DNA of 64,000 nt from a virus. Lineage: Duplodnaviria > Caudoviricetes. The notes beneath the pieces were generated by a model, which saw nothing but the letters and a program-made list of their open reading frames with translations, ran no database searches and was not told where the DNA came from. The translations under genes and the position numbers were made by a program. Positions 9,682-48,485 of the stretch are shown here, in pieces (position 1 is the first letter of the stretch; every line of letters starts with the position of its first letter). The stretch lies in IMG/VR virus record IMGVR_UViG_3300033145_002422; one strand, 5' to 3'.

Positions 9682-9712
9682 AGTGCTGCAAAAAACCGAT
9701 ATAATATTCATT

Positions 9713-10501: not shown

Positions 10502-10506
10502 ATAAA

Positions 10507-11640
10507 ATGAAAAAATTAGTTATAGGAGTCAATCATTCACATCCTGAATCTACAGGGGGTTCAGAGAGGGTTGTTCAGCAAATAGCTGAAGGGCTTTCTT
10601 CTTGTTTTGGATATGAATGTTTTATACTTTCTAATACAGCAAAGAATGAAAGAATTATAAATGGAGTAAAAATAATAAAATGTTCTATAGTTTTATCAGA
10701 TTTTTTAAATCAGTTAAATAGAATTGATCCAGATCATTTTTTTATTTATGGAGATTTGTTTTATCAATGGCCTTTGATTTTACAAAATGTAAAAAAAATG
10801 CCATTTAGTAAAAGTATAGCATTGGTTGGGATGAACGGTATGTTATCTAATAATTTTTTGTTTTCTCAATTTAAAAGAAATATAAATTATTTTTCTGTTA
10901 TTACTCATTCTGATAATTATCAGGATTTTATAGAATGTAGAAATAATTCTATTCCTGTTAATGTTGTACCGAATAGTATCAATTTGAAAGAATTTGATAT
11001 ACAAAATGATTTTAGAAAAAAATATAATGTGACTGAAAAAAATATTATACTCTGTGTCTCTAATTTTTTTCCAGGAAAAGGACAGGAGTTTTTAGTTCCT
11101 ATTTTTGAAAGATTGGAAAAGAAAAGAAAAGATTTTATTGTTGTTTTCGTAAGTTCTAATTGTTCATGGAATATTGTTGAAGCTAGAAGAAAGAGTATTA
11201 TGAGTAAAGTTAATTCTTCTAAATTTCGTTCTTTATTTCTTAATAATATTTCTAGAGAAGATGTTATATCTGCTTTTTTGTCTGCTGATGCATTTGTTTT
11301 TCCTTCTCAAAAGGAAGTCGCTCCTTTAGTTATTTTAGAATCTATGGCTTCGAGAACTCCATGGATTAGTATGCCAGTTGGAAATGTAAGGGAGTTAGAT
11401 GGAGGAATTATAATTGATTCAAATAAAAAAGAATTAGATGGTTCTCTACTTTATAGTAATGATATATATCAGTTATTTTGCGATGGTATTGATAAATTAT
11501 TATCTAATAGGAAGTTTAGAGAGTCTTTATCTTACGATGGTAGAAAACAAATAGAGGAAAAGTATGATTTTAGAGAAATTATTAAGGTATATAACAAAGT
11601 TTTTTCTGAAGCAATAGATCAATTTAATTTCTCTAGGTGA
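10507..11640 (+). CDS. Glycosyltransferase family 4 (GT-B)
   Basis: GGSERVV N-terminal motif; KGQE; FPSQKEVAPLVILESMAS (EX7E). Confidence 0.85.
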   Translation: MKKLVIGVNHSHPESTGGSERVVQQIAEGLSSCFGYECFILSNTAKNERIINGVKIIKCSIVLSDFLNQLNRIDPDHFFIYGDLFYQWPLILQNVKKMPFSKSIALVGMNGMLSNNFLFSQFKRNINYFSVITHSDNYQDFIECRNNSIPVNVVPNSINLKEFDIQNDFRKKYNVTEKNIILCVSNFFPGKGQEFLVPIFERLEKKRKDFIVVFVSSNCSWNIVEARRKSIMSKVNSSKFRSLFLNNISREDVISAFLSADAFVFPSQKEVAPLVILESMASRTPWISMPVGNVRELDGGIIIDSNKKELDGSLLYSNDIYQLFCDGIDKLLSNRKFRESLSYDGRKQIEEKYDFREIIKVYNKVFSEAIDQFNFSR

Positions 11641-24549: not shown

Positions 24550-25230
24550 ATGGAACAGAATATATATATTAAATCGAAGTATGTAATAGATTCTATAAGA
24601 GATAAATATTCTATAGTAGAATATTTATCTTCTATTGGGATACATCCTCAAAGAGAATATGATGAAAAATATATTTATTTATGCCCATTTAAAAATCATG
24701 TAGAAACAAAACCATCGTTTACAGTTTATAGAAAACCTGATGGGCAGGAGGATTTTTTTTGTTTTGGATGCAAATCTTCAGGAAATTTTATAGTTTTATA
24801 TGCTAAGATGCATGAAATATCTTGGGTAGATGCGATAAAAGAATTATCAAAAGATTTTGATTTTAAAATTAGTGATCATATAGATTTTGTTATTAAGCAG
24901 TTGAAAGATAGTTTAGAATCAGATGATATAGAAGAAAATGCTAGAGATATATTTGGTTTTGTTTCTCTTAATCTAAGTACTATTGGATATAATTATTTAG
25001 TTAAAACTAGTTTTGATCTAGAAGAATATTCGTTTTTAGAAAACTTCTATAAAAAGATAGATCAATATATAGAGCAAGAAGATATCCATGGGCTTATAAA
25101 AGTAAATGAATTTGTTAATGGAAAAAATAAAATGAAGAAGAATCTTTTTAATTTAAGACTAGAAAAGTGGATTAAACAACAAAGAGAAAAAATGAAAGAA
25201 AAAATAGTTGGAGAAAGAATTAATGGATAA
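24550..25230 (+). CDS. Primase CHC2 zinc-binding domain protein (stand-alone N-terminal part of DnaG)
   Basis: CPFKNHVETKPSFTV...FFCFGCKSSGN; no TOPRIM motifs. Confidence 0.85.
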   Translation: MEQNIYIKSKYVIDSIRDKYSIVEYLSSIGIHPQREYDEKYIYLCPFKNHVETKPSFTVYRKPDGQEDFFCFGCKSSGNFIVLYAKMHEISWVDAIKELSKDFDFKISDHIDFVIKQLKDSLESDDIEENARDIFGFVSLNLSTIGYNYLVKTSFDLEEYSFLENFYKKIDQYIEQEDIHGLIKVNEFVNGKNKMKKNLFNLRLEKWIKQQREKMKEKIVGERING

Positions 25231-28791: not shown

Positions 28792-29076
28792 ATGCCAATC
28801 TACATTTATCGACATCCTAAAACCGGAGATTTAATAGAAGAATTGCGTCCTATGAGTGAATGTAAAAAACCATTGGTATTGGCAGATGGTACAATTTGCG
28901 AAAGAGTTTTCGGCGGAGAACAAACCATAAATAATAAAAGAAGAAGACAGTATAGGGGAGTTAGAGGGCATGAAGGTTTTGAGGTAGATCCAGATTATTA
29001 TAAGGCTTTGAATCCTAAAAAAGTTCGCTTCAAAGATGGTCATACAGAGCCGTATAATCCAGATAAGCACTGTTAA
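28792..29076 (+). CDS. FmdB-like zinc-ribbon/regulatory protein (degenerate)
   Basis: MPIYIY...ICERVF N-terminal pattern; most Cys missing. Confidence 0.45.
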   Translation: MPIYIYRHPKTGDLIEELRPMSECKKPLVLADGTICERVFGGEQTINNKRRRQYRGVRGHEGFEVDPDYYKALNPKKVRFKDGHTEPYNPDKHC

Positions 29077-29137
29077 ATGTATTTTAAAGAAATAGTGTTG
29101 AATTAAAATCTATAATAATCCAGATAAACATTGCTAG
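29053..29137 (+). repeat. Imperfect 24-bp direct repeat of a gene 3' end (NPDKHC-stop twice)
   Basis: 29053-29076 tat aat cca gat aag cac tgt taa; 29114-29137 aat aat cca gat aaa cat tgc tag. Confidence 0.8.
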
Positions 29138-29146
29138 GAGATAATA

Positions 29147-29386
29147 ATGAATCCAGAATGGGTCTACTGCGAATTATGTGATTGTGTTGCCATGATATGT
29201 CCAAAATGCGGAAATAATTGTTGCAATGGAACGTATGGGCTTGAGGGGAAATGTGATGTATGTCCAGAAGTTTACGATATGCAAGATAAGGCTTATGAGG
29301 AAGGAACTAGACCTTTAAAAGATGGTTTAAGAGTTTTACCAGATTCAATGAAAGCATTATTAGATGAATTAGATAATTCAAAATGA
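29147..29386 (+). CDS. Small Cys-rich metal-binding protein
   Basis: CELCDC..CPKCGNNCC...CDVC; SD aggag. Confidence 0.6.
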   Translation: MNPEWVYCELCDCVAMICPKCGNNCCNGTYGLEGKCDVCPEVYDMQDKAYEEGTRPLKDGLRVLPDSMKALLDELDNSK

Positions 29387-29739
29387 AATATACAAGAAAA
29401 CAAATAATTGCTACCACTGTATTCGATGATGATATTTCTGACATGGAAACTATTGTTAATTTATTTAATACATTTTTTAAATCTACAGTTGATATATCCA
29501 TGGAAGTAAGAGATACAAAGACTAAGAATATAAAGTTTTATGAAAAAGTAAGAATTAAATCAGTAAATGAAAAAACAATAGACATTTTGATTTTTCAAAA
29601 AAGTTTTAACCTTTCTGTAAAAAGTATTCCTTTTGAGAATATCATTTCTATAAAACTTGTGACGGAAAAGCAGAATATAATAGCTGGAGATGATAAGCTT
29701 TCTAAGTTTGATTTTATAGATATCCAAGAAACAAAATAA
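29383..29739 (+). CDS. Hypothetical protein
   Basis: Coupled ORF (ATGA-type overlap). Confidence 0.55.
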   Translation: MKYTRKQIIATTVFDDDISDMETIVNLFNTFFKSTVDISMEVRDTKTKNIKFYEKVRIKSVNEKTIDILIFQKSFNLSVKSIPFENIISIKLVTEKQNIIAGDDKLSKFDFIDIQETK

Positions 29740-29759
29740 TTTATTTTAAGGAAATTATA

Positions 29760-29963
29760 ATGCGTGAAAATAAAACCAATTCTGTAATTTTAAGTGAAAG
29801 TAACATAAAGGCTTCTTCGCTTTTTTCAATGTTGTCTTATTTACATGATAAGGGTCTTATAAGTTCTAAAACTTTTTTAGAAACGTTTTCTATAGATTAC
29901 GATCAAGAACTTAATCAAATAGCTAAAGAGAACAAAGGTAACAAAGGTAACAAAGGTAAATAA
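29760..29963 (+). CDS. Small hypothetical protein
   Basis: SD aaggga; ends with (aacaaaggt)x3; stop abuts dnaE ATG. Confidence 0.5.
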   Translation: MRENKTNSVILSESNIKASSLFSMLSYLHDKGLISSKTFLETFSIDYDQELNQIAKENKGNKGNKGK

Positions 29964-32507
29964 ATGGAAATAAGTAATAAAGATTTCGTGCATCTGCATG
30001 TACATTCAGAATATTCAAAATTTGATGGTTTAGCTACTATTAAGGGATTAGTTGCTAAGGCTAGAGAAATGGGATTTCCAGCATTGGCGATAACAGATCA
30101 TGGCAATGTTGGTAGTTTTATTAAGTTTATAAAAGAGTGTAAAGCTACTAAAGATAAAAATGATAAACTATTAAAATATCCGCCTATTAAACCTATTTTA
30201 GGAGTAGAGTTATACTTTTGTCGGAAACATACTGCTAAAAGTAAGGCAGAACAACCAGAAGAACGTTTTGGTAACAGCCATATAGTATTGTTGGCTAAAA
30301 ATTGGGATGGATACCAGAATTTATGTACTTTAGACCAAATAGGATATACTCAAGGTTTTTGGTATGATCCTAGAATTGATTTTGATCTATTAGCAAAGCA
30401 CTCAAAGGGCTTAATTTGCTCCACAGCTTGCTTAGGTGGCATTATAAATAAAAATTTGCTTCATGATAGGTATGATCAAGCTAAGAAGGCTGCTGGATTG
30501 TTTAAAGACATTTTTAAAGAAGATTTTTTTATGGAAGTTATGTTTCATGGTATGGCTGCTGAAAGAAGTATTATTCCTGATATATTCAAATTATCAAAAG
30601 AATTAGATATACCAGTCATAGCTACAAATGATTGTATATCAGGAGACTCTATGATTGTAACGGGGTCTGGGCTAAAATCTGCTACTGAAGTAAAGGCAGG
30701 AGATTTTTTATTAACTCACAATGGCAGAATGAGAAGGGTAGAGTTTGTTAACAGAAGAAAATCTAATAATATATATACTGTTCATGGGTATATGGGAGGA
30801 GAACTAATAAGGGCCACTGGAAATCATCCCATTTTGGTAGGAATGAGGAAAAGGAGTGGGACAAAGAATGTGATTCGATCATTACAGTGGATTAGTGTAC
30901 AGGATTTAACTCCAAATCATTATTTTGCCATACCAAAAATCCATTCAGAAGATATATTCTGCTCCGCGTCAGTCGAACAATCTCACATTGATGTTTTAAA
31001 ATATTATGATATTAAAAAATATCGTAGATCATCTTTCATGGAGAATGATGTTGAATATGTTTATTCTGGAAGATGTATGGATAAAAATATTCGTATCCCA
31101 CGTTGTTTACCGCTTGATAAAGCGTTTTTTGAAGTATTAGGTCTATATATAGCGGAAGGATGCGTTTCGACAGACGGATTGCAGCAACTGAATTTTGGAT
31201 TACATAAGGATGAAATTCATCTAAAGAAGAAACTTGTTGATTTTTTCTCATCTTTTGGTTTGCATCCATCAGTAAGGTGTCATGGTAATGGAGTTTGGAT
31301 TAGAGTTGTTTCAACGGTTTTTGCAGAATTATTTTCTAAATTATGTGGCAATTCTTCATCTCAAAAGCACATGCCTATATTGGAAAATAGGAATAGCTTT
31401 TTTGGTTGTTGGACAAGAGACCAGGTATCTTATATTCTATCAACATATATAGAAGGGGATGGTCATGAGCCTCTTGGCAGGAAGGCGATTTCAATCGCTT
31501 CTACATCAAAAACTCTTATTTTTGAAATCTCAGCTATATTAAATGCGTTGGGCATTTTATCGTTGCCAACAGAACGAGATTACCAGAATAGGAACAGTTT
31601 TAAAGAATGGAAGCATAAGAATCCTAATGCTAAATCATCTAATTGGAATAATACGTTTATTTTACATATATCTGGGAATAACAAATTTATACTACAGCGG
31701 TGGATTCATAGGCATAAAAATCAAGAAGTTCTTAAGGGTAAACAAAATTATTGTGAAGATGATAATTATTATTATGTAAAAATAAAGAAAATAAAGAGTA
31801 TAGAAAACGAAATGGAAGTTTATAATTTTCAAGTAGCCGAAGATGAATCCTATACAGTTAATTTTGTTTCTGTACATAATTGCCATTATATAGAAAAGAA
31901 ACATGCTAAATCTCAAGAAGTTTTGATGTGTATGTCTTCGTCTAAATGTATGCATGATCCAAAAAGACCAAAACTACCTACGGAAGAGTTTTATCTTAAG
32001 AGCGCAAACGAGATGTATAAGATGTTTCAGGTTTATCCTCAGGTAATTACAAACACGGTTGCTCTTGCTAATCGAATTGATAATAAAGATATTGACAATC
32101 ATTTATTCGGAGGAATGAGATTGCCAAAGTTTGGTATTCCAGAACAATATGAAACTCCTTTTGAGTATCTTAAATTCTTAGCGATAGATGGATTGAAAAA
32201 ATTAAATTGGGATAAAAGTAAACCTCATGTTGAGGCTTTGAGAAAAGAATTGATAGATGTTAAAGTAGCGTTGGATAATAATAATTATGATTTTTCTACA
32301 TATTTTCTTATAGTAAGAGATATTATACAATTTGCAAAGAGTAAAGAAATTATGTGCGGTGCTGGCCGTGGTTCTGGGTATGCTAGTATTTTGTTGAGAT
32401 GCTTAGGAATAACTTATGGAGTAGATCCGATAGAGTATGAACTTTTGTGGGAACGCTTTTTAGGATTTGATTCTGCCCACTTCATAAAAACCACAGATTT
32501 CTTCTAA
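29964..32507 (+). CDS. dnaE: DNA polymerase III alpha, N-terminal piece (PHP plus start of palm), with intein
   Basis: FVHLHVHSEYS, AITDHGN, PRID, STACLGG, ATND/CHY, GRGSG, WERFL then stop before PDID. Confidence 0.95.
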   Translation: MEISNKDFVHLHVHSEYSKFDGLATIKGLVAKAREMGFPALAITDHGNVGSFIKFIKECKATKDKNDKLLKYPPIKPILGVELYFCRKHTAKSKAEQPEERFGNSHIVLLAKNWDGYQNLCTLDQIGYTQGFWYDPRIDFDLLAKHSKGLICSTACLGGIINKNLLHDRYDQAKKAAGLFKDIFKEDFFMEVMFHGMAAERSIIPDIFKLSKELDIPVIATNDCISGDSMIVTGSGLKSATEVKAGDFLLTHNGRMRRVEFVNRRKSNNIYTVHGYMGGELIRATGNHPILVGMRKRSGTKNVIRSLQWISVQDLTPNHYFAIPKIHSEDIFCSASVEQSHIDVLKYYDIKKYRRSSFMENDVEYVYSGRCMDKNIRIPRCLPLDKAFFEVLGLYIAEGCVSTDGLQQLNFGLHKDEIHLKKKLVDFFSSFGLHPSVRCHGNGVWIRVVSTVFAELFSKLCGNSSSQKHMPILENRNSFFGCWTRDQVSYILSTYIEGDGHEPLGRKAISIASTSKTLIFEISAILNALGILSLPTERDYQNRNSFKEWKHKNPNAKSSNWNNTFILHISGNNKFILQRWIHRHKNQEVLKGKQNYCEDDNYYYVKIKKIKSIENEMEVYNFQVAEDESYTVNFVSVHNCHYIEKKHAKSQEVLMCMSSSKCMHDPKRPKLPTEEFYLKSANEMYKMFQVYPQVITNTVALANRIDNKDIDNHLFGGMRLPKFGIPEQYETPFEYLKFLAIDGLKKLNWDKSKPHVEALRKELIDVKVALDNNNYDFSTYFLIVRDIIQFAKSKEIMCGAGRGSGYASILLRCLGITYGVDPIEYELLWERFLGFDSAHFIKTTDFF
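30633..31880 (+). mobile_element. Intein (416 aa, LAGLIDADG) in DnaE PHP motif ATND|CHY
   Basis: CISGDS...ATGNHP...LGLYIAEG...YIEGDG...VYNFQV...SVHN|C. Confidence 0.92.
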
Positions 32508-32552
32508 TTTTAGCCTAAAAACTCAATATTTTGTCAAAACTAACAATAAAAA

Positions 32553-32627
32553 ATGATAGTATTTAATATCATATTGTATATTTTCGGAGTTTTAACTACA
32601 GTTTTAATAACAATGTTTACTTCTTAA
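32553..32627 (+). CDS. Possible 24-aa hydrophobic peptide MIVFNIILYIFGVLTTVLITMFTS
   Basis: Short ORF read manually; no clear SD. Confidence 0.25.
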   Translation: MIVFNIILYIFGVLTTVLITMFTS

Positions 32628-32677
32628 CTGCAAGAGCTTAGAAACAATATTTATAATTTTTTTAGCGGGATGAGAAT

Positions 32678-33070
32678 ATGTTAGTAATAAAAATAAGAGA
32701 CAATTTATACATATCGGGTTGCAAGGCAACTGAAGATGATTTAAAGAAACTAGGTATTAACTGCATTCTCAATGTTGCTGATGATGCAAAAACTATTTTA
32801 ACAGCATATGGTTCTGGAATACAAAGGAATACCTGTTCATTTGCTGATGATACAGAATCAGCACTAAAAAGAGGAGCTATGGCTGTTGAATTAGCTGTTG
32901 ATTTACTGAATGAAGGAAAGATTTTACTTATACATTGTAAAGTTGGTAACAGTAGAAGCCCTCATATAGCTGCTTTAGCATTATCTCAAATTGAGAAAGT
33001 TAGCTACGATCAGATATATGAAGAGATAAGAAGGTTTAGACCTTCTGTAATGAAGTATAGTATGCGATAG
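32678..33070 (+). CDS. Dual-specificity protein phosphatase
   Basis: IRDNLYISG, GINCILNV, HCKVGNSRS (HCX5R), RRFRP. Confidence 0.85.
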   Translation: MLVIKIRDNLYISGCKATEDDLKKLGINCILNVADDAKTILTAYGSGIQRNTCSFADDTESALKRGAMAVELAVDLLNEGKILLIHCKVGNSRSPHIAALALSQIEKVSYDQIYEEIRRFRPSVMKYSMR

Positions 33071-33121
33071 TCTTTAATTGATTTGGATGCAAGTTGGATA
33101 GATAAATTAAGGGATATTTAA

Positions 33122-35110
33122 ATGGATAAATATAAAAAAATAAGATCAGAAATTTTGAGTTCTGTTATAACTGATGATGCTGATATTCTAAAGAAAGTTG
33201 ATAAGGAGTTGGATTTTCTTGAAGTAACGGAGGGAATTCACGATGTCAATAATCTTGAGAATTTTTATGATATATGGAAAGAGCATAAGGGAAAAACTGG
33301 TACTAAGAATGAAGTAAATAGCTGGACTGCATGGGCTGTTGGATTAACAAATAAAAAACCAGACGTTGATGCTGAGTTTATAGCCGAGAGAAGAATTTTT
33401 GCCAGGGCAGGATTCCCTGATATTGATATGGATTTTGATTATTTTTATCAGAATGAAATATATGATTATATTGTTGAAAAATATGGAAGAGAAGTTGTTG
33501 GTAACATAGGAACATACCAAGGTGTGAAATTAAAATCTGCTGTTACAAGAATAGGAAAAGTTCTTGATGTTGCTGGCGCTTTTTATAAAGGAAAAGAAGC
33601 ATATGTATCTGAGAATGAAGCTAAAATTAGAGAGATTATAGATTCTTCTTTGCCTAAAGGTGGAATAGTAAAAACGAGAGATAAAGAAGGAAAAGCTGTT
33701 ATTGTCAAAAGTATAAAACAAGCTTATGAATGTTTTCCAGATTTTAAATATTATATGGATAAGTTTCCAGATTTATATAAACATGCAAAGCAAATTGAAG
33801 GAATTAGATCAATATTTGGAGTTCATCCTGCTGGTATCGTAATTTCTAATGTTCCTTTAGAGGGTATAGCCCCTATGAGAAGAGCAAAAGAAAATTCATT
33901 AGCTACTCAATATGATATGGAAGATTTAGAGTCTGTTGGTTTAATTAAGATGGATATATTAGCTTTGTCAACTTTAACGGTTGTTTCTCAGACTGTTAAA
34001 ATGATTAAAAATAACTATGGAATAACTATAGATGTAGAGAATTTACCAGTTACTGATGAAAAAACATATGAATTGTTTAGAAGGGGAGATCTAACTGGAG
34101 TTTTTCAATGTGAAAATCCTGGTATGCAACATACTATGAAGGATATTAATGTAGACAAATTTGATGATATTATGGCTGCTATAGCATTATATCGTCCAGG
34201 TCCAATGGGTTCTATTCCAGATTATTGCATGAGAAAGAAGGGAGAAGCTGATATAGATTATTTCCATGATTCTATTGAACCATATGTTAAAAAATATCTT
34301 CAAAAAACTTATGGTATTCTTGTATATCAAGAACAATTGATGCAGATATGTAATTCTTTAGCTGGATTCTCTATATTAGATGGATATGTTCTTATTAAAG
34401 GCGTTGGAAAGAAAAAGCAAAACCTTATAGACAAATTCAAAAAACAATTTATACAAGGTTGCGTAAAAAATGGTGTTCCAGAAAATATAGCTGAAATATA
34501 TTGGGACAAGTTTATAACTCCATTCGCTTCTTATGGTTTTAATAAATCGCATGCATGCTGTTATGCTTTTTTGTCTTATATTACCGGATATTTAAAAGCT
34601 AACTATCCAGATGAGTTTTTCTGCGTTTATTTAAATGTTGAAAATCAAAGAAAAAATCAAGATAAAATAGATGAATTAATGAAAGAGATGAAAAAGTTTA
34701 ATATAAAGGTATCTGATAAGAATATAAATGATTGTGAAGAAGATTATAAAATAATTCAAAAGAAAGATGATTTGTCAGGTGTTCCAAAAACTATTATAAG
34801 TCCTAGTATTATGTGTAAAGGAGTAGGTTATAATGCTGCAAAAGAAATAGCATTGTATAGGCCATATAATAATTTAAGAGATTTGGCAACAAAAACATCA
34901 TCTACAGTTGATCAAGATATAGTTGGTTCTTTAGTAGATTTTGGTTTTTTTAGTAAGCAATTTAAAGGAACAAATAAGGGTAAAAGTAAAGCAAAAAAAA
35001 TTACTATTGAAAAGTTTAGGCAAAATGTGCAGTTAAAATTTGCTACTATAAGAAAAGATTTGAAAGCAGCTTCTAAGAAGGGTGTATTATCTGGAGATTT
35101 GTTTGAATGA
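33122..35110 (+). CDS. dnaE: DNA polymerase III alpha, C-terminal piece (catalytic palm, fingers, HhH)
   Basis: FPDIDMD, GVHPAGIV, GLIKMDIL, GVFQCE, ALYRPGP, TYGILVYQEQ, YGFNKSHA, KGVG. Confidence 0.95.
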   Translation: MDKYKKIRSEILSSVITDDADILKKVDKELDFLEVTEGIHDVNNLENFYDIWKEHKGKTGTKNEVNSWTAWAVGLTNKKPDVDAEFIAERRIFARAGFPDIDMDFDYFYQNEIYDYIVEKYGREVVGNIGTYQGVKLKSAVTRIGKVLDVAGAFYKGKEAYVSENEAKIREIIDSSLPKGGIVKTRDKEGKAVIVKSIKQAYECFPDFKYYMDKFPDLYKHAKQIEGIRSIFGVHPAGIVISNVPLEGIAPMRRAKENSLATQYDMEDLESVGLIKMDILALSTLTVVSQTVKMIKNNYGITIDVENLPVTDEKTYELFRRGDLTGVFQCENPGMQHTMKDINVDKFDDIMAAIALYRPGPMGSIPDYCMRKKGEADIDYFHDSIEPYVKKYLQKTYGILVYQEQLMQICNSLAGFSILDGYVLIKGVGKKKQNLIDKFKKQFIQGCVKNGVPENIAEIYWDKFITPFASYGFNKSHACCYAFLSYITGYLKANYPDEFFCVYLNVENQRKNQDKIDELMKEMKKFNIKVSDKNINDCEEDYKIIQKKDDLSGVPKTIISPSIMCKGVGYNAAKEIALYRPYNNLRDLATKTSSTVDQDIVGSLVDFGFFSKQFKGTNKGKSKAKKITIEKFRQNVQLKFATIRKDLKAASKKGVLSGDLFE

Positions 35111-35456
35111 GTAGTATGGAATTTGAAAACGGAAACGAAATAGAAGGTACATTCTCTTCTGCGACTCAAAGTGGTTGTGTTTAGAGGTAGTATTTTCAAT
35201 AAGTAAAACGGATTCTATGAAAATAAGTTCATGCGTTGAGGTTAAAGATGTTTTAATAAAAGCAGTGAATATTAATATTGAAGAAAATGGTTTAAGGTAT
35301 GAAGGAAGTTTTATAGTTTCAAAAATATTTTTTGATAAACATTTTGATTATATTACAATAATGTCAAATAATTATAAAAATGTAGATGCAGTAGACAAAT
35401 TTTTTATTTTAAAACAGAAAATAAATAAAATAAAACAACATATTGGAGGAATATAA
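35107..35456 (+). pseudogene. Hypothetical gene apparently broken by a frameshift near 35175
   Basis: ATG 35107 overlaps dnaE stop and reads 25 aa to TAG; the 93-aa ORF continues in the -1 frame. Confidence 0.4.
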
Positions 35457-35457
35457 A

Positions 35458-35730
35458 ATGAGCGAAAATGAAGAGGGCGTAAAGAAGGAAAGACTTTCGA
35501 AGATATCAAAGAGTATTTCAAGGAAGTTTAATGTTGCAAAGTATGAAAATTTAGTTATTCATGTTTCATACGAAGAAGAGGTAGAGTGGGGTGATCTTAA
35601 GACGAGACAGAAAAAATCAGAAGATGTGACTAAACTTTTGTTAATTGATTTTGAGCAAACGAAGAAAGAGGTTTTTGAAGAGCTTGGGTTGGAAGAAAAG
35701 ACAGCTTTTATGGAAAATCCTCTTGAGTAA
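35458..35730 (+). CDS. Hypothetical phage protein
   Basis: SD ggagg; SRKFNVAKYEN motif. Confidence 0.55.
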   Translation: MSENEEGVKKERLSKISKSISRKFNVAKYENLVIHVSYEEEVEWGDLKTRQKKSEDVTKLLLIDFEQTKKEVFEELGLEEKTAFMENPLE

Positions 35731-35759
35731 AAAATGAGTAAAAAATAAGGGAGAATTGA

Positions 35760-36923
35760 ATGAGTAATTCAGATAATGAGTTAAGTGATATAGAAGATAT
35801 CTTTGGAATCTCCAAAGATATGAAAAATGCTGAAGAGCAAGATGATGTGGTTGATTTTGATATGGAAGTGGAAAAATTGAATTTAACTATGTCAAAGGAA
35901 GAGACAGAACAGCCTTTAAAAGAATTGGAAATTGCTGTAAAAAAGAAAGAGAAAAAAACTGTAGAAAGCATAGAAAAAACTATAGTTCAGAGTATAAATA
36001 AAACTAATTTAGAAGATCAAAAAAATAAAGAAATTAGTGTAGAAAAAACTATAGAAATGCCGATAAATATAGTAGAGGATGAGGAAATTAAAGACGAAGA
36101 AAAGTATGTTAATCAAGTTTTGGAAGAGGTAGATGTGATAGAAGAGAATCAAAAAAATAAATTAGATGAAAATGAAAATTGTGAGGAAGAAATTATTGAT
36201 TTTGATATCCCAAAGAGTACAGAAATAGAATGGATTATTAAAAGTACTGATAGCAGATTTGAAAATTTTTATGCAGAAAAAAGGTTATTGTTAAAAGATA
36301 TTCTTGTTGGCGGTGTTCTTCCGTTTAAAGATCTAATGAAAGAATTAAAAGGAAGTTATGTAGATATATCTCATCCTACATTTGATACTGAAATGGCATC
36401 TATTAAAATGGATAGAGTTCAGAAAATGAGAGATAGGATATCTCAAATTGCTATAGATTGTAATCAGCAATATTATCCATGGAAGAGGGGAGTTGAATTG
36501 ATGCAGGGTCTTCTTGCAAGAACTCAATATGAAAAGCCTGCTGCAAAACAAGATGGTCTTATTTATGAGCATATGAAAGATATAGAAGTTTATTTTCATA
36601 AATTAGAAAGTCTTCATTATTCCATAGATGCAATTACAAGAAATCTAGATGGAGCATTCGATTGTTTATCAAGGAGGGCAACGATAGCTTTACCCTCAAG
36701 ACCTGTAGAAAGAAAATATCTAAGTTCATATGAACATGTTCAAAATATTAATGTAAGTGATCCTAAAGAAAATCCTAAAGAATCTAAATTTATTGAAGAT
36801 GTTCCAAATGTTTTATTAGAATATGATTCTCTTCCAGATGATGCTAAAGATAAGGTTACAGAAAATATTCCTTTTAAGAAAAAACTTAGAAAATCTGGAA
36901 AAGTGTCGTGGAATGAGATATAA
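35760..36923 (+). CDS. Acidic/coiled-coil hypothetical protein upstream of SSB-RecA (possible recombination mediator)
   Basis: SD gggag; helical C-terminal half; function inferred from context only. Confidence 0.45.
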   Translation: MSNSDNELSDIEDIFGISKDMKNAEEQDDVVDFDMEVEKLNLTMSKEETEQPLKELEIAVKKKEKKTVESIEKTIVQSINKTNLEDQKNKEISVEKTIEMPINIVEDEEIKDEEKYVNQVLEEVDVIEENQKNKLDENENCEEEIIDFDIPKSTEIEWIIKSTDSRFENFYAEKRLLLKDILVGGVLPFKDLMKELKGSYVDISHPTFDTEMASIKMDRVQKMRDRISQIAIDCNQQYYPWKRGVELMQGLLARTQYEKPAAKQDGLIYEHMKDIEVYFHKLESLHYSIDAITRNLDGAFDCLSRRATIALPSRPVERKYLSSYEHVQNINVSDPKENPKESKFIEDVPNVLLEYDSLPDDAKDKVTENIPFKKKLRKSGKVSWNEI

Positions 36924-37656: not shown

Positions 37657-37690
37657 TTAATAGTAATTTATAAAAATGGAGAGACTTTTT

Positions 37691-40012
37691 ATGTCAAAAA
37701 ATGTAGGTAAAGATATTGTTTTGGAAAATTTGAAGGGTTTCATTAAAAAAGGAGCGTCATCAAATATAATAGGTTGTGTTCCAACTGGACATTTTAAGTT
37801 AGATTACATTATACATCATGGAGTTTCTCCAGACGAAGTTGATCTTAGCGAAGACAGTGATTACGATCCGTCTAAATTTTTGGGCATACCTCTAGGAAAA
37901 GTTGTGGAGATTTTTGGAGAAGAGGGAGGAGGAAAATCTTCACTTGCTTATCGAATTGTTGGGTATGCTCAAAAGATGGGTTTAGATTGTGCATGGATTG
38001 ATACTGAGAGATCATTTTCTGATAACTTAGCTTTAATCAATGGCGTTAATAGGGATGAGTTATATTATTCAGATATGATAAATCCAGAGAATCCTGATGA
38101 GCCGTATTATGCTGAAAATGTTTTCGATGCTATTACTACTTTATGTAAAAGCAATATGGGAGTTATAGTATTAGATTCTGTTGCTAATTTGGTTCCGAAA
38201 GCTAGAATGGAAAAGACAGCAGAGCAGGCTACGGTAGGAATTATTGCTAAGCTAATGTCTGAGAATATGGGAAAGATAGTTAATTACGCTGCAAAGCATA
38301 ATACATTAGTAATTTTTATTAACCAGCTTAGAGAAAAAATAGGTATTATGTTCGGATGTTTCCATTATAATGCTAGAGTTGTTCTAGAGGATGGCTCAAC
38401 TGAAAAGATCGGCAAAATTGTAAATAATAAGATGGATGTAAAAGTAATGTCTTATAATCCCAAGACTGGAGCAATCGAGCCTAAGAAGATTATAGATTGG
38501 CATGATAATGGCAACTTAGGAGAAGATGAATATTTTCTTCAGATAGTTGCTGAAAAACATGGGGGAAATGGGGTATCTAATATTTCATGTACTCCCAATC
38601 ATGTTATTTTTGCTGACCCTATTTTCGATATTAAAAAGAATAGGTGGTTAGCTAAAGAAATGAAAGCGGAAGAACTCCAGATTGATGAAGAAGTTTTAGT
38701 TGCTCAGCCTTACTATTTGAACGATATTCAAAAGCAAGTTGTTTATGGTTCTATTTTGGGAGATGGCAGCATAAAGGGTGGTAAAAGGGATGATTCTTGT
38801 TCGCATTTGAGACTAGGACATGGAATAGATCAGAAAGAATACTTGGATTGGAAAATTGATATTCTGTCTCCATGGATAGGATGGCAGGGAGGAAAGAAAA
38901 ATGGGAAAGCGGTTTTTGCCGACACTATCCCTATGTTTGAACTAAACAAGTGGAAATATAAAACAAGTTTTGGAAATAATTGCTGCAATGTTATTCCAAA
39001 TGATGTAGTAAATAATTTAGATGTTTTAGGTCTTTCTATTTGGTATCTGGATGATGGTAGTTTTGGTGGAAACTATTCCAAGTGGGGAAATGGGAAATCC
39101 TATATAGCGTGTACAAAATTTGCAAATAGAGGAAACATGATGGAAGCATTCTATAGACTGGGATTGTCTCCTAGTTTTAGAGATAGAGGTTTTGTATTTG
39201 ATTCTGAAAATACTAAGAAGTTGCATTCTTTGATTTGTAAGTTTGTTCCACCTTGTATGGATTATAAATTGCATCCCAACTTCAGGGGAAAATATGATTT
39301 TGTTATAGATGATGATGAACCTCAAATTCGATACGAAGCTGTACCAGCGAGAATTATTAATATCTATAAGAAGCCAGAGACAAGAACAAAGAAGAAGTTC
39401 GATTTGACTATCGAAGATAATGCTACATATTTAGTAGATGGAGTTGTTGTGCATAATTCACCAGAAACAACTCCAGGTGGAAGAAGTTTAAAACATAATT
39501 CGTCTTTAAGAATAAAAATTTCTAAGAAAAGTGGTAAAGATGCTAATATTTATACTACTAACGATAACGGAAATGAAATTCTTATTGGCAGATATGCTTA
39601 TGTTAGGATAGAAAAAAATAGATTTGCAAAACCTTTTTTTGATTCTTTAGAAGTTCCTATTTACTATGAACCATATTTCCCAGATGTAGAAGAAATTATG
39701 TTTGATGTTGGTCGCCAAATAAAATTGATTTCTGTAAGAAAAGGTATATATAAATGGGGAGAAAATATTAGAGTAGAAGGGAAGAAAAATTTTATTGATT
39801 ATATTCGAATGAATAATTTACAGTTGCAACTTGCAAAAGAAATTGAAGAAAAATCTAAAGAATCAGGAGTTATTTTACCACCAGAAATAGTGAAATGGAT
39901 TAGCGATAATAAATTAGAAGAGACAATTATAAAAAATGAGGTTGGAGAATTAGATGAGAAATCAACCAATGAGAAAACTTCTTCCAGAAGTAGAAAGAAA
40001 GAAAATAGTTGA
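37691..40012 (+). CDS. recA: RecA recombinase with intein
   Basis: GKVVEIFGEEGGGKS, IDTE, VLDSVA, IFINQLREKIGIMFG/SPETTPGG, KNR. Confidence 0.95.
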   Translation: MSKNVGKDIVLENLKGFIKKGASSNIIGCVPTGHFKLDYIIHHGVSPDEVDLSEDSDYDPSKFLGIPLGKVVEIFGEEGGGKSSLAYRIVGYAQKMGLDCAWIDTERSFSDNLALINGVNRDELYYSDMINPENPDEPYYAENVFDAITTLCKSNMGVIVLDSVANLVPKARMEKTAEQATVGIIAKLMSENMGKIVNYAAKHNTLVIFINQLREKIGIMFGCFHYNARVVLEDGSTEKIGKIVNNKMDVKVMSYNPKTGAIEPKKIIDWHDNGNLGEDEYFLQIVAEKHGGNGVSNISCTPNHVIFADPIFDIKKNRWLAKEMKAEELQIDEEVLVAQPYYLNDIQKQVVYGSILGDGSIKGGKRDDSCSHLRLGHGIDQKEYLDWKIDILSPWIGWQGGKKNGKAVFADTIPMFELNKWKYKTSFGNNCCNVIPNDVVNNLDVLGLSIWYLDDGSFGGNYSKWGNGKSYIACTKFANRGNMMEAFYRLGLSPSFRDRGFVFDSENTKKLHSLICKFVPPCMDYKLHPNFRGKYDFVIDDDEPQIRYEAVPARIINIYKKPETRTKKKFDLTIEDNATYLVDGVVVHNSPETTPGGRSLKHNSSLRIKISKKSGKDANIYTTNDNGNEILIGRYAYVRIEKNRFAKPFFDSLEVPIYYEPYFPDVEEIMFDVGRQIKLISVRKGIYKWGENIRVEGKKNFIDYIRMNNLQLQLAKEIEEKSKESGVILPPEIVKWISDNKLEETIIKNEVGELDEKSTNEKTSSRSRKKENS
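38357..39457 (+). mobile_element. Intein (367 aa, LAGLIDADG) at RecA GIMFG|SPETT site
   Basis: CFHYNARV...CTPNH...GSILGDG...WYLDDG...VVHN|S. Confidence 0.93.
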
Positions 40013-40679
40013 ATTATCTCAGCATGAACTTAAAACAAAAGAGGGAAAAAAAGCTTATGAATATTTAAAAGAAGAAAGAAAAATTACAGATAAAATAATA
40101 GAAGAATTTAGAATAGGTTATATTCCTAATTGGGTAACTAATTTGCATGATGATAAACACGAATTTGCTGGAAGAATAATATTTCCCATATATAATCAAT
40201 ATGATGAATTAGTTGCATTATCTTCAAGGGATTGGAGACAGGATACTGGAATGAAATTTTTTCATGAAATGTATAGAAAAAGAAATTATTTATATGGATT
40301 AAATGTAGCTAAGAAAAATATTTTACAAAATAAAAAAGCAATAGTTGTAGAAGGGGAATTTGATGTTTTATCTCTTCATTCTGTTGGAATCGATTGTGCA
40401 GTAGGTATGTTAGGGAGTTCTTTTCATTTGGAGCAAATTTCTTTATTAAGTAGATATTGTCAATATATATATATGTCATTTGACGGAGATTCTGCTGGAG
40501 CAGAGAGTATGAAAAAGGTTTCACTTTTATGTAGTCAAAGAAATTTTAGAAGTATGTTTGATTTGTCTTTAATACCATCTATTTTACCAGAAAAAGTTGA
40601 TCCTGATGAATTTGTACATAGTTATGGAGCAAAGAAGTTTATAGAATTATTAATAAAATCAAAAAATGAATTTTTATAA
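39954..40679 (+). CDS. dnaG: DNA primase catalytic core (TOPRIM), lacking zinc-binding and helicase-binding domains
   Basis: YLKEERKI...FRIGY, FAGRIIFPI, LYGL, VEGEFD, FDGDSAG, KVDPDEF. Confidence 0.88.
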   Translation: MRNQPMRKLLPEVERKKIVELSQHELKTKEGKKAYEYLKEERKITDKIIEEFRIGYIPNWVTNLHDDKHEFAGRIIFPIYNQYDELVALSSRDWRQDTGMKFFHEMYRKRNYLYGLNVAKKNILQNKKAIVVEGEFDVLSLHSVGIDCAVGMLGSSFHLEQISLLSRYCQYIYMSFDGDSAGAESMKKVSLLCSQRNFRSMFDLSLIPSILPEKVDPDEFVHSYGAKKFIELLIKSKNEFL

Positions 40680-42832: not shown

Positions 42833-44710
42833 ATGAAAAGATTTACATATAAAAAAGAACTAACAGTAGAAGATGTTTTAAAAACATTACAGAAGTTTTA
42901 TGATAAAATGCCAGAAACATCTGGATGTTTAGAAAATATAAATAAAGAGAATGGATGCGGAGGCTGGTGCTGCCTAGCCGAAGGCACTATGATATATACT
43001 CCATGCGGTCTCGTCTCTATAGAACAACTCAAGCCTGGAGATCCTGTTTTTACAAAAAACGGGTTGAGCAGAGTTGTTAGAACAGGTAGTAGGAAGATCG
43101 CTGAAGACGTATGCGAAATAACTACTTGTTATGGAAGGAAAATAAAACTAACCAAAGACCACAGGGTTTTTGTTGATTTTATAACTAGAAAGGGAAGATA
43201 CATATATGACAAATCTGAATTTGTTGAAGCTGGATCGTTGGTGTCAAAAAATGGAAAAACATTGCCAGGACATTATGTTATTTTTCCCAAGATTAAAATC
43301 AAAGAAAATAAAAATCCCATTTATATACAAGTCAGTAATTTCGCTAATGTTTTCGAATGTAAAGAGGGCGATAATTTTTCTAAAGATGAAATATATTGCT
43401 ACGCATCATCACAAAAAAGAGGTCATAAAATAAAAGATCATGTTTTGTTAAGTCAGGATTTTTGTTGGATTTTAGGGCTATATTTAGCAGAGGGGTCAAC
43501 TGGAGATAGCAGCATAGATTTTCATATAAGTTCAGATGAAAAAGATATATTAAATAAGATAGAAAAATTTGCTAAATTTTTTGATCTTTATTGTTCTAAT
43601 AAAATTAATAGAGGAAAAAGTAAAACCGTTAGAGTCTTCAGTAGAGTATTATCTAGATTTTTCAAAAGCGTTTGCGGTTCCGGATGTGAAAATAAAAAAC
43701 TAGACGATAAATTGTTCAAACTGATTGTATCAAACGAAAACTTGAGAATGGCATTTCATTCGGGTTTATATGCTGGAGATGGAACTAAAAAACTATCCGA
43801 AAAAATAAAATATTCTTATACTACAACATCTATCGCTTTGTCAAACCAAATTTTGTTTTTAAACTATTTAGAAAATGAGTTTCCTATTTTTTTTCACGGT
43901 AAACCCAAAAACAGAAAAGAATGTTTTACAATTTCAATTTCTGATGGAAAATTCAAAGATTATGTCGAAACAGATAATGATTTTAGGATTCCCATAAGGA
44001 ATATAGATATTGTAAAATATAAAGGTAATGTATACGATATAGAGGTAGCAAATGGAGAGTCTTTTTTAACCGAAGCTGGAGAGGTTCATAATTGCAAATA
44101 TCAGTCACCGCAAGTTCTTAATATAGAATTTATAAATACATGGGATTTTGTACTTAATAATTTTTCGAATGAAGAAATATTTGAGTTGCTTGAGAAATCT
44201 ATTAGAAATTATTTATCTAATGATTTTTCTAAAGGATGTATATTTTGGAATAAAGAAACTAAATTATGTAAGATACATACTGCTAGACCTTTTAATTGTT
44301 ATTTATACGGAATTACTCCGAAAGAAGAATTTACTGAAAGATACGATAGGATGAAGAGGGAACATAAGAATGAGTTTGGAGCAGTTATAAGACAACAATG
44401 CGATTTGGTTTCTACCGTTAATTGTGATATGCCAACAGTTGAAGAAACTGAAAAGTTGTGGAAAGAATTGATAGATATAGAAAAAAATATAGGTATAGAT
44501 GCAAGTTTAATACATGACGGAGATGGTGGAACATATAGAACTTATCATGATTACATTTTGATTAAGTTACTTCCAGAGAGTTCTTTAAGCGATATGACAA
44601 CATTGAGATTGTATGGAGAAATAGAAGAAAAAGAGCAATTTGTATGTAATTTTATGTCTTCTTTTAGAAAAGCATATACAAAAATCGAAGAAAAGGAGAG
44701 AAATAAGTAA
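42833..44710 (+). CDS. YkgJ/FliB-like cysteine-cluster (Fe-S or Zn) protein with intein
   Basis: After splicing CGGWC|C; later CIFW...CKIHTARPFNCYLYG typical of CxxCxxCC family. Confidence 0.75.
   Translation: MKRFTYKKELTVEDVLKTLQKFYDKMPETSGCLENINKENGCGGWCCLAEGTMIYTPCGLVSIEQLKPGDPVFTKNGLSRVVRTGSRKIAEDVCEITTCYGRKIKLTKDHRVFVDFITRKGRYIYDKSEFVEAGSLVSKNGKTLPGHYVIFPKIKIKENKNPIYIQVSNFANVFECKEGDNFSKDEIYCYASSQKRGHKIKDHVLLSQDFCWILGLYLAEGSTGDSSIDFHISSDEKDILNKIEKFAKFFDLYCSNKINRGKSKTVRVFSRVLSRFFKSVCGSGCENKKLDDKLFKLIVSNENLRMAFHSGLYAGDGTKKLSEKIKYSYTTTSIALSNQILFLNYLENEFPIFFHGKPKNRKECFTISISDGKFKDYVETDNDFRIPIRNIDIVKYKGNVYDIEVANGESFLTEAGEVHNCKYQSPQVLNIEFINTWDFVLNNFSNEEIFELLEKSIRNYLSNDFSKGCIFWNKETKLCKIHTARPFNCYLYGITPKEEFTERYDRMKREHKNEFGAVIRQQCDLVSTVNCDMPTVEETEKLWKELIDIEKNIGIDASLIHDGDGGTYRTYHDYILIKLLPESSLSDMTTLRLYGEIEEKEQFVCNFMSSFRKAYTKIEEKERNK
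42971..44092 (+). mobile_element. Intein (374 aa, LAGLIDADG) in YkgJ-like protein
   Basis: CLAEGT...LTKDH...LGLYLAEG...GLYAGDG...VYDIEV...EVHN|C. Confidence 0.92.
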
Positions 44711-45467: not shown

Positions 45468-48400
45468 ATGATAAATCTAAATGAGCAGCAAGAATTAGCC
45501 GTGAATCATCTAGCCGGCCCATGTTTAGTTACCTCCTGTCCTGGTTCGGGAAAAACCCGTGTATTGACTGAAAGGACAATTAGGCTTATACAACAAGGAG
45601 TGATTCCTAAAAACATACTATGTATTACGTTTACCAATAAAGCCGCAAATGAAATGAAGAAAAGAATTTGCGAACGTATTGGTTCAAAAGATATAGGTAT
45701 GTTTGTTGGAACATTTCACTCCATGTGTGCTATGGTTATTCGAGCATATTACAAAAGGCTAGGATATACAAGCCAAATTACCATTCTAGATCAAGATGGT
45801 CAGAAATCTCTTATGAAGAAATGTGCCAGGGCTCTTGACTTTGATATTAAGGAAGATAACATAGATGTCGAACACATTATGTACCATATCAACACTTCAA
45901 GAGAGTTGAGTGAAGATAATTCTGAAATGGAAGACAGGTTTAAAAGCAAAAAGGATCACTGGACAATTGCAGAAGAATATTTCAAGGTTTTGAAGAAATC
46001 AAATTTGATTGATTTTAGTGGATTGCTGTATGAGATGATTAGGTTGTTAGAAGAAAATCAGGTTGTGCTAGAGAAGTTACATAACATCTTCAAATACATA
46101 CAGGTTGATGAATCACAGGACTGTAACAAAATACAATATGATATTATCAATTTATTAGGAAATAAATATAATAATATATTTTTAGTGGGAGATATTAGCC
46201 AGTGTGTTGCTGCCGATTCTCTGATTAGTGTTCAAGTTGGTGAATCTGAAGAATGTAAAAATATAAAAGAAAATAGTACAATATTTTCGGCCAGTGGTAG
46301 TGGAAATTATTCTCTTTCTAAAGTCGAAAGGGTATATAAAAAATATTGTGATAATGAAGTTGCTATGAGTATAGAAACTGATAGTGGTAATAAGTTGGTA
46401 TGTTCTCCCGATCATATTGTCTTTGCTGGGTTTTCTGGGGAAAATAACACTATTAATAAAAATTATATAGTATATTTGATGGAAGACGACAACAGTAACT
46501 TCCGCATAGGTGTTACGAAAATATATAGAAATAAAAAGAATGGCTATATTTACGGTTTTAAACAAAGAGTTCATCAACAACATGCTAGTAGAATTTGGTT
46601 TATGGGTGTTTTTGCTAGTTTTGATGAGGCTTTAATATATGAGGATATATGGTCTTTACAATATAGTATCCCTAAAAATGTTTTTAAAACTTGTCATAAT
46701 AAAGATGTATTCCAGAAACATATTGATGCTGTTTTTTCAACGATTAATACTAAATGTAATGCACTTAAAATGTTAAATGATTTTGGGATTATGTATAGCT
46801 ATCCACACCATATCCCATATTCGTTTGGTAAAAATAAAGGCAGAAATTTTACTGTGACTATTTGTTCCCATAGCAACTCTGTATTTCATACATGTGCGAT
46901 TTATGGGGATGATATGATAGATTATCAGTTACTAAAAGATGCGGGAATAGCTGTTAGATTGAAATCTAATAAAAGAGGATGGAAATTTCAAAAGGGGAGT
47001 ATTAATTTAGATTTTATATATGATATTTTATTACAAATAAAACGTGTTTTGGGAGATATTAATATAATAGAAAAAGCAAAATTAGTTACTGGTCATTCAT
47101 TGCCATTCTGTCCTGTGTCTAATATATTAGAAGGAATGAATGTTTTTGTTTTGTTAGACAATGGACAGCTTAGTGTTGATAGAGTAAAAAAATGTAAAAA
47201 AATTGATTATTCTGGTTACATGTATGATTTTGACATAAATAGAACTCATAATTTTGTTGCGAATGGGATAGTGAGTCATAATTCTATTTACCGTTTTCGG
47301 GGAGCAAGACACGAAAATATTTTAGATTTTCTTGTTAAATATCCCGATTGTAAAAGAATATCGTTGGGAAAGAACTACAGGTCAACTCCGGAAATCATTG
47401 AGGCAGCAGATAAACTAATTAGACACAACGACAGTCATATCAAGAATGATTTCTTTACGGATAACTCGAATGGGGATAGGGTTATTTGCAACCATTTCAA
47501 CTCTCAATATGCTGAGGCAGATTGGGTCAAGGGAAAGATAAAGTCGTACATAGATGATTTGGGTTGGGATTATTCTGATGTTGCTATTTTGTACCGACTC
47601 AACAAACTATCTCTTGATATGCAAACTTCTTTTGCGAAAGATGGGATACCGTATTGTGTAATCGGAGGCCCGAATTACTTCAATAGAAAAGAAATCAAAG
47701 ACTGTATCTCTATGTTGGAATTTATGGTTAACCGCAGAAATACGGTAGCCTTTCATAGAGTTCTTTCTACAATGAATGATGTAGGAGATAAGACGGTTGC
47801 GGCTATCGAAGCGAAGGCAGAACTAGACAACGTTGACTTGTACGATGCTTGTGAATCTCTGGTCGATTCCAACTCAAAAAGGATACAGAAGGCTTCCAAG
47901 AAAATTTCTAACATATATGCAAAAGATTTTGCCGGCAAACATGGAGGTGAATGCCTAGAAGAGTTGACCAGTTCGTTTAATTATTTTCAATGTCTCGCAT
48001 CATTCTGCAAAACTGATGAAGAGTTTGAAGAGCGTAAAGATAACATAAACGAGTTGATTATTCATGCCACTGAATTTGGAAAGATTAACCCGAATGTGAA
48101 AGACTATTTGAATAATATATCTTTGATTACTGATGCAGACAAAGACGCAGAAAAGAATGCCGTTACCCTTATGACTGTGCATGCAAGCAAGGGATTGGAG
48201 TTTCCAATAGTCTTTATCGTCGGTGTCGAAGATGATATACTCCCTCATTATAGGGCGCTGTTAGAAGGAGATACAGAAGAAGAAGTCAGTGATGCTGTAG
48301 AAGAAGAGAGAAGAATATGCTACGTCGCAATGACAAGAGCTATGAAGTACCTGAGTATGACATATTGCCGCTATAGAAAACAAAGAATGAAGGGCGGCAT

Positions 48401-48485
48401 AGTAATTGACAAGAAGAAATGTCCGAGTAGATTCCTTCTTGAGTCTGGCCTTATTAAAAAGGAAGAATACGAAGGTCATGTTTGA
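45468..48485 (+). CDS. uvrD: UvrD/PcrA SF1 helicase with intein
   Basis: LNEQQ, PGSGKT, TFTNKAA, VDESQD, GDISQ/SIYRFRGA, NYRST, TVHASKGLEF, EERR..YVAMTRA. Confidence 0.95.
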   Translation: MINLNEQQELAVNHLAGPCLVTSCPGSGKTRVLTERTIRLIQQGVIPKNILCITFTNKAANEMKKRICERIGSKDIGMFVGTFHSMCAMVIRAYYKRLGYTSQITILDQDGQKSLMKKCARALDFDIKEDNIDVEHIMYHINTSRELSEDNSEMEDRFKSKKDHWTIAEEYFKVLKKSNLIDFSGLLYEMIRLLEENQVVLEKLHNIFKYIQVDESQDCNKIQYDIINLLGNKYNNIFLVGDISQCVAADSLISVQVGESEECKNIKENSTIFSASGSGNYSLSKVERVYKKYCDNEVAMSIETDSGNKLVCSPDHIVFAGFSGENNTINKNYIVYLMEDDNSNFRIGVTKIYRNKKNGYIYGFKQRVHQQHASRIWFMGVFASFDEALIYEDIWSLQYSIPKNVFKTCHNKDVFQKHIDAVFSTINTKCNALKMLNDFGIMYSYPHHIPYSFGKNKGRNFTVTICSHSNSVFHTCAIYGDDMIDYQLLKDAGIAVRLKSNKRGWKFQKGSINLDFIYDILLQIKRVLGDINIIEKAKLVTGHSLPFCPVSNILEGMNVFVLLDNGQLSVDRVKKCKKIDYSGYMYDFDINRTHNFVANGIVSHNSIYRFRGARHENILDFLVKYPDCKRISLGKNYRSTPEIIEAADKLIRHNDSHIKNDFFTDNSNGDRVICNHFNSQYAEADWVKGKIKSYIDDLGWDYSDVAILYRLNKLSLDMQTSFAKDGIPYCVIGGPNYFNRKEIKDCISMLEFMVNRRNTVAFHRVLSTMNDVGDKTVAAIEAKAELDNVDLYDACESLVDSNSKRIQKASKKISNIYAKDFAGKHGGECLEELTSSFNYFQCLASFCKTDEEFEERKDNINELIIHATEFGKINPNVKDYLNNISLITDADKDAEKNAVTLMTVHASKGLEFPIVFIVGVEDDILPHYRALLEGDTEEEVSDAVEEERRICYVAMTRAMKYLSMTYCRYRKQRMKGGIVIDKKKCPSRFLLESGLIKKEEYEGHV
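46203..47282 (+). mobile_element. Intein (360 aa) in UvrD motif III with non-LAGLIDADG central domain
   Basis: Q|CVAADS...CSPDH...MYDFDI...NFVANGIVSHN|S; centre YIVYLM...FRIGVT. Confidence 0.9.

Follow-up and report, generated by a model that had tools for sequence, protein, structure and literature searches.

A DnaE-type polymerase of large phages encoded in two genes and probably acting as two non-covalently associated chains

The window analysed here, a 64,000-nucleotide (nt) stretch of DNA from a Caudoviricetes virus (IMG/VR record IMGVR_UViG_3300033145_002422), encodes a DnaE-type polymerase (the α subunit of DNA polymerase III, Pol III, of the C family) in two neighbouring genes, dnaE-N (gene 1) and dnaE-C (gene 2). 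Comparisons with relatives and structure modelling indicate that the enzyme is probably made as two polypeptides that associate without covalent joining. The structure of the two genes, its conservation and distribution among relatives, and the selection acting on it are direct observations. The following features of the locus, with lengths in amino acids (aa) or nt, carry the argument.

29964-32507, plus strand: dnaE-N, 847 aa; PHP domain, intein, N-terminal palm, GRGS, WERFL, 14-aa tail and TAA stop
30633-31880, plus strand: LAGLIDADG intein of gene 1, residues 224-639 (416 aa); PF14890 and LAGLIDADG_3
32364-32375, plus strand: GRGS loop, residues 801-804 of gene 1; triphosphate-binding motif of the Pol-beta-like palm
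32463-32504, plus strand: conserved tail GFDSAHFIKTTDFF, residues 834-847 of gene 1
32508-33121, plus strand: gap between dnaE-N and dnaE-C, 614 nt; stops in all frames
32678-33070, plus strand: dual-specificity (Cys) phosphatase gene, 130 aa; PF00782, E-value (E) 1e-10; HCxxGxxR motif
33122-35110, plus strand: dnaE-C, 662 aa; leader, catalytic palm strand, thumb, fingers and C-terminal helical region
33122-33388, plus strand: leader of dnaE-C, 89 aa, a conserved helical module; GTKNEVNS loop at the GRGS-equivalent site
33416-33436, plus strand: PDIDMDF strand with the catalytic D100 and D102 of gene 2
33953-33955, plus strand: D278, the third catalytic aspartate, in a K.D.L motif; invariant column of alignment A4

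An earlier note on this DNA had described gene 1 as carrying a PHP domain, GRGSG, WERFL and a 14-aa tail, and translation and Pfam searches agree with this description. The PHP domain matches PF02811 (E 1.2e-45), and gene 1 covers positions 2-97 of the palm profile PF07733. The intein interrupts a PHP motif at ATND|CHY; it begins with CISGDSM, ends with VSVHN and is followed by a Cys at position +1, and the uninterrupted sequence ATND-[CSV]H[YF] is present in the intein-free orthologues of L005, L006, L007 and L001. The C-terminal end of gene 1 reads GRGSGYAS...WERFL, with WERFL at residues 829-833, followed by the tail GFDSAHFIKTTDFF and TAA. Both GRGS and W.RFL.F are invariant across the 91 N-halves of alignment A3.

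Gene 2 covers positions 69-260 of PF07733 and the finger domain PF17657 (Pfam, E 1.6e-51), so that profile positions 69-97 are matched by both genes. Its catalytic aspartates D100, D102 and D278, the last of which we take to be the equivalent of E. coli D555, show no variation in the 73 C-halves of alignment A4. The earlier statement that gene 2 carries the catalytic aspartates therefore stands, whereas the statement that it resumes at ARAGFPDID does not, because the conserved 89-aa leader precedes this sequence. Together the genes contain the parts that define a DnaE-type enzyme: the PHP domain, a Pol-beta-like palm with the GS loop and three aspartates, and the thumb and fingers. The catalytic core is not, however, on a single polypeptide, but is divided between two open reading frames (ORFs) that are 614 nt apart and in different frames.

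The two-gene arrangement is not peculiar to the window. The first 200 residues of gene 2 gave 160 protein matches, and among the 120 listed more than 100 were about 650 aa long, had the same leader and lacked PHP. The end of an intein-free N-half gave 262 protein matches that contain PHP and a partial palm and stop just past WERFL; the N-halves were mostly 430-490 aa long among the 120 matches listed. The contigs of relatives in public assemblies reach 472 kilobases (kb), which indicates that the relatives are large to huge phages. Recurrence of the breakpoint with differing intervening genes had been proposed as a check, and its outcome was positive: the same breakpoint was present at all 8 relatives' loci examined, and the number of unrelated genes in the gap ranges from 0 to 3, as follows.

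L005: gap of 12 nt, in frame, with a TAA stop
L009: 1-nt overlap of stop and start
L006 and L010: one unknown ORF each
JGI contig: a 131-aa ORF and ClpP
L007 and L008: three small ORFs each
L004: no gap; the halves are fused in a single ORF (P0006)
This window: the phosphatase gene

These loci support the view that the two-gene enzyme is conserved and that its gap is permissive to insertions. In the comparison of the window with L005, in which synonymous sites are near saturation, the leader had proportions of nonsynonymous and synonymous differences (pN/pS) of 0.232/0.742, and the remainder of gene 2 had 0.097/0.583. Judged from this comparison and from the conserved residues of the alignments, purifying selection acts on both halves and also on the tail and the leader, in keeping with the earlier view that both halves are intact.

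The sequences that flank the break are conserved in their own right. F196 and D206 of the gene 1 tail are invariant in the N-halves of alignment A3, and F201 and F207 are nearly so. The tail GFDSAHFIKTTDFF is a short version of the clade motif GFD..RFIKESDFGF and lacks the acidic ...DDLGGVDRY end; in most relatives the tail is 42-48 aa long and contains an acidic stretch and the conserved ...DDLGGVDRY end. The short form of 14-17 aa is that of the window's sublineage, one member of which, P0006, has re-fused. In the leader, E29, N63, A70, P80 and F86 are invariant across the clade (alignment A2, 99 sequences). The fused relative P0006, which is 76% identical to residues 1-200 of the window's gene 2, contains WERFLGF, the tail, 12 residues, the leader and PDID in one ORF. 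Therefore, the tail and leader constitute a single insert of about 100 aa in the loop between ERFL and PDID, and the break is within this insert. The spacing of ERFL and PDID, given in the earlier note as about 7 residues, is exactly 7 in 64 of the 72 unsplit DnaEs collected. By alignment, the break site is thus inside the clade-specific insert and not in the 7-residue loop.

A mechanism that joins the RNA or the proteins, offered in the earlier note as the other option, would make the enzyme covalently continuous through an unrecognised intron, protein trans-splicing, read-through or bypass. Introns and inteins are common in phage polymerase genes and the window is rich in inteins, the two genes of L005 share a frame with only TAA and 12 nt between them, and the basal relatives P0286 and P0290 carry a genuine split intein at GRG|S, some 40 aa upstream of the break. 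However, the gap in the window contains 22, 26 and 7 stop codons in the three frames, the genes on its two sides are in different frames, and the 12-nt gap or 1-nt overlap in relatives is too small for an intron. A scan of positions 29500-35500 against Rfam at E<=1 gave no intron or other family; divergent introns can escape Rfam. Both the tail and the leader show conservation of their amino acid sequence. The absence of intein motifs from the ends at the break, claimed previously, was borne out: the leader is all-helical, its residues 1-92 have no HINT match, and there are no intein-type terminal residues and no Cys, Ser or Thr in a +1 context. Covalent rejoining of the halves is therefore very improbable.

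The association of the two chains was modelled as the earlier note had suggested, with the part of gene 1 that follows the intein (208 aa, alignment A3) and gene 2 (alignment A4), in three runs and with three controls. The interface score ipSAE (interaction prediction score from aligned errors) was 0.85 in the three runs and 0.00 in the best of the 3 controls; among solved complexes 58 of 80 attain this mark, and among mismatched pairs 2 of 110. The runs had at least 96% of contacts in common, and the predicted local distance difference test score (pLDDT) of the partner was at least 87. In the model, chain 1 touches residues 104-106 of chain 2 through its GRGS loop, and the interface takes in the whole tail together with residues 32-76 and 87-95 of the leader. 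The non-covalent two-subunit C-family polymerase put forward in the earlier note is favoured by this complex model, which passed its controls, by the conserved break, by the selection on both halves, and by the location of the invariant GRGS and aspartates on separate chains.

When gene 2 was modelled alone, the pLDDT was 89.3, and residues 96-645 aligned with residues 398-910 of E. coli α (2hnh) with a Z-score (Z) of 26.0 and a root-mean-square deviation (rmsd) of 4.6 over 494 aligned residues. The top-ranked structural alignments of the monomer model mostly begin at residues 89-98 and leave the leader outside, and the linker of residues 89-99 is the sole stretch of low confidence (pLDDT 38). 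The leader folded alone forms four helices and is all-helical (pLDDT 87.8). Alignment with VIA-align placed the leader on residues 286-393 of E. coli α (Z 6.7, rmsd 2.9), 315-420 of M. tuberculosis DnaE1 (Z 6.6, rmsd 2.6) and 304-455 of T. aquaticus α (Z 6.4, rmsd 2.8). Of the 89 leader residues, 83 superposed on DnaE structures, and the next unrelated match had Z 3.7. The top match of the leader model in Foldseek was also M. tuberculosis DnaE1, with E 1.4. The DnaE segment matched by the leader is directly upstream of the catalytic strand, and gene 1 encodes the same segment with its motifs intact. Alignments of gene 2 with canonical DnaEs in BLAST and phmmer extend back to residue 51-65, and in them GTKNEVNSWTAWAVGLT..KP of gene 2 pairs with GRGSAAGSLVAY.LGIT..DP. 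We infer that the leader is probably a degenerate internal duplicate of the palm segment at the end of dnaE-N, and hold this with moderate confidence, because Z values around 6.5 are modest when the module is helical.

The fold of the leader also allows a different assignment of roles, in which chain 2 polymerises without a partner, its leader standing in for the missing palm segment, and chain 1 serves as a separate proofreading subunit, a PHP exonuclease with no part in catalysis. The leader does have the fold of the missing segment and is strongly conserved, with near-invariant G60, N63, N66 and S67 in the loop at the GRGS position. Nevertheless, it does not contain GRGS, whereas GRGS is invariant in 91 of 91 N-halves, in which it would then be useless. 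Moreover, the leader is absent from the canonical position in the monomer model and in the complex model alike, and the GRGS of chain 1 touches the catalytic strand. The canonical palm position appears to be left for chain 1 in the models, with the leader packed elsewhere against it. We consider self-sufficiency of chain 2 unlikely.

Several results weigh against the association of two chains through a duplicated palm segment. Besides the modest Z-scores, hhalign of the leader with the gene 1 segment gave E 0.054, which is not significant, and 0.34 in the reversed control. The leader profile retrieved no DnaE from the PDB sequences at E<=10, and Pfam gave nothing on leader residues 1-92, HINT and inteins included. 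The pass of the complex model may reflect likeness to solved single-chain DnaE structures. In a public sequencing run of sediment DNA that shares a small part of the locus, the only parts covered by contigs were 269 nt of the phosphatase gene and a 33-nt piece, and the junction was not bridged; no RNA run was listed as sharing the locus. That this is the sole public run sharing part of the locus, and that the exact locus is present in one assembly only, could suggest a pseudogene or an assembly artefact. However, hundreds of independent assemblies show this break, and both halves remain intact and constrained in them, which makes such an origin extremely unlikely.

The history of the split was approached with a tree of 79 sequences spanning the palm to the C-terminus, which does not fix the root or the sequence of the early events. 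A clade of 70 rows had a support of 99 in the Shimodaira-Hasegawa-like approximate likelihood ratio test (SH-aLRT), and 61 of the 70 rows are split forms. The insert-free unsplit forms L001, L002 and P0246 make up one clade nested deep within the split clade, and the four fused forms that retain the insert (P0006, P0253, P0281 and P0282) are scattered in the tree, each beside split forms. Since they are nested among split forms, the unsplit and fused forms look secondary. The simplest reading of the tree would be that the split is old, that several forms later re-fused and that one deletion "healed" the gene. These relatives resemble the window in their 55-76% identity to the halves and in the same replication-gene neighbourhood. 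They differ from it in that L001, L002 and P0246 have no insert and read WERFLAF, 6 to 7 residues and KRVFARPGFPDID, whereas P0006, P0253, P0281 and P0282 keep the insert within one ORF.

The basal group of the tree contains canonical unsplit forms, leader-type splits and the split-intein forms P0286 and P0290, which are cut at GRG|S. These two begin with an Int-C of about 37 aa (...EGL.VHN|S) fused to S..SL.LY.LGVT..DP...ERFL...PDID. Their cut, which precedes the intein-free break by only about 40 residues, may bear on the origin of the split. In L002 (6696-11339), the region of ERFL and PDID is unsplit and dnaE is cut farther downstream, at the SYGFN site, as a true "fractured gene". Its N piece ends in an Int-N (CLDGSM...), its C piece opens with an Int-C ending in ...FSAN|SHSS, and a free-standing ORF of 384 aa between the pieces looks LAGLIDADG-like by eye.

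Based on the sequences and models, an organisation of the enzyme can be proposed. Once its intein has been spliced out, chain 1 would be left with PHP and the first half of the palm, in which GRGS is the triphosphate-binding loop. The three catalytic aspartates, the thumb, the fingers and the C-terminal region are on chain 2. With GRGS on one chain and the aspartates on the other, the active site would be composite, and the break corresponds to about residue 394-397 of E. coli α. The tail of chain 1 and the leader of chain 2, which are both in the modelled interface, probably form the docking surface. We thus infer the binding of the chains, the composite active site, the docking role and the origin of the leader by duplication. 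The split is selected and probably old, and the intergenic gap has turned into a place where unrelated genes insert, here that of the dual-specificity phosphatase.

To our knowledge, the palm is always on one chain in the C-family replicases that have been solved or studied. The window's enzyme shares its domains, GRGS and aspartates with the single-chain DnaEs of E. coli (2HNH, 2HQA, 5FKW), T. aquaticus (2HPI, 3E0D, 4IQJ) and M. tuberculosis (5LEW, 7PU7). Unlike these enzymes, in which 7 residues connect ERFL and PDID, it has two polypeptides and the insert of about 100 aa at this point. Our literature searches found no paper on a full-size DnaE split into two chains.

A phage-specific minimal Pol III α has been described in the group 2.2 (T4-like) jumbo phages (Iyer, Anantharaman, Krishnan, Burroughs, Aravind 2021, Viruses 13:63, PMC7824862). 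Its catalytic module is divided, without an intein, between two proteins, of which the N-terminal one binds NTP and the C-terminal one binds Mg2+ and the template, and the authors propose that these reconstitute one enzyme; this Pol III α has no PHP, its genes are distant from each other, and a family B polymerase is present alongside (PMC7824862). The window's enzyme has the same topological break and likewise no intein, a likeness that was established from the published description and not by sequence alignment. Unlike the minimal form, the window's enzyme is a full-size DnaE with PHP, palm, thumb and fingers, its genes are neighbours, and its break is flanked by the extra conserved leader and tail; PMC7824862 does not report a duplication. 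A search for PolA and PolB in the relatives' records L001 (20% complete) and L002 (6% complete) gave no match.

In the cyanobacterial split DnaE and in "fractured genes" (Dassa et al. 2009, PMC2677866), dnaE is likewise in two pieces, and the pieces of fractured genes are neighbours with a gene between them, as in the window. There, however, a split intein rejoins the pieces and the gene between encodes a homing endonuclease (PMC2677866), whereas the window has no intein halves and a phosphatase gene in this place. The window further differs from a split-intein DnaE in that gene 1 ends with a tail of only 14 aa, the leader contains no HINT, the junction reads ...FIAE|RRIF, and there is no free-standing homing endonuclease gene.

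The phosphatase gene that the earlier note had placed between the halves was verified by its PF00782 match and HCxxGxxR motif. The protein is related to structures of dual-specificity phosphatases (DUSP; E 1e-5). The gene occurs in the gap of this window alone and not in that of any other locus examined. Its ORF stops at TAG, after which the frame is open for 16 codons to a TAA that abuts the ATG of dnaE-C (33068-33121). In a promoter and terminator scan of the gap, the count of sites was not above that of shuffled sequences, and the search for repeats flanking the phosphatase insertion gave short, chance-like matches only. Neither tblastn of the phosphatase against phages nor blastn of positions 29000-36000 against GenBank phages gave a match.

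The locus lies in a phage replication module with DnaB, a DnaG zinc ribbon, a methylase, RecA with an intein, Toprim and UvrD with an intein. Inteins are unusually numerous in the window: those with LAGLIDADG or Hint signals occur at 30633-31880, 14995-17985, 37676-40012, 42833-44710 and 45468-48485, and their hosts are the PHP motif of dnaE-N, an SF2 helicase, RecA, a CxxCxxCC protein and UvrD. The DnaG primase is likewise encoded in two genes, which are about 15 kb apart: one (24550-25230) for a CHC2 zinc ribbon protein and the other (39954-40679) for a protein with DNAG_N and Toprim. This two-gene layout of DnaG is common to L005, L006 and L009. Elsewhere in the window, an ORF of 2458 aa (2305-9681) contains Laminin_G_3 and Kelch repeats and is followed by two glycosyltransferase genes (9644-11640).

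The window itself adds modestly to the description of the family, with the phosphatase gene in the gap, the intein in the PHP motif and the shortened tail. For annotation, the halves are at present called "PHP domain-containing protein" or "DNA polymerase III subunit alpha" or are left unnamed, and could pass for broken genes. It is reasonably likely that a clade of large to huge phages uses a full-size C-family replicase whose two-chain active site is held together by a degenerate duplicate of the palm, and that genes in the gap, such as those of the phosphatase and ClpP, might be expressed together with the replicase and perhaps even influence how it assembles. The family would then document a gene fission tied to an internal duplication, and the tree would show the subsequent re-fusions and a single "healing" deletion. 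If the two-chain form is real, it is natural, ancient and widespread, and would mark where the DnaE fold tolerates a cut under selection and offer a natural system for the assembly of a composite polymerase active site.

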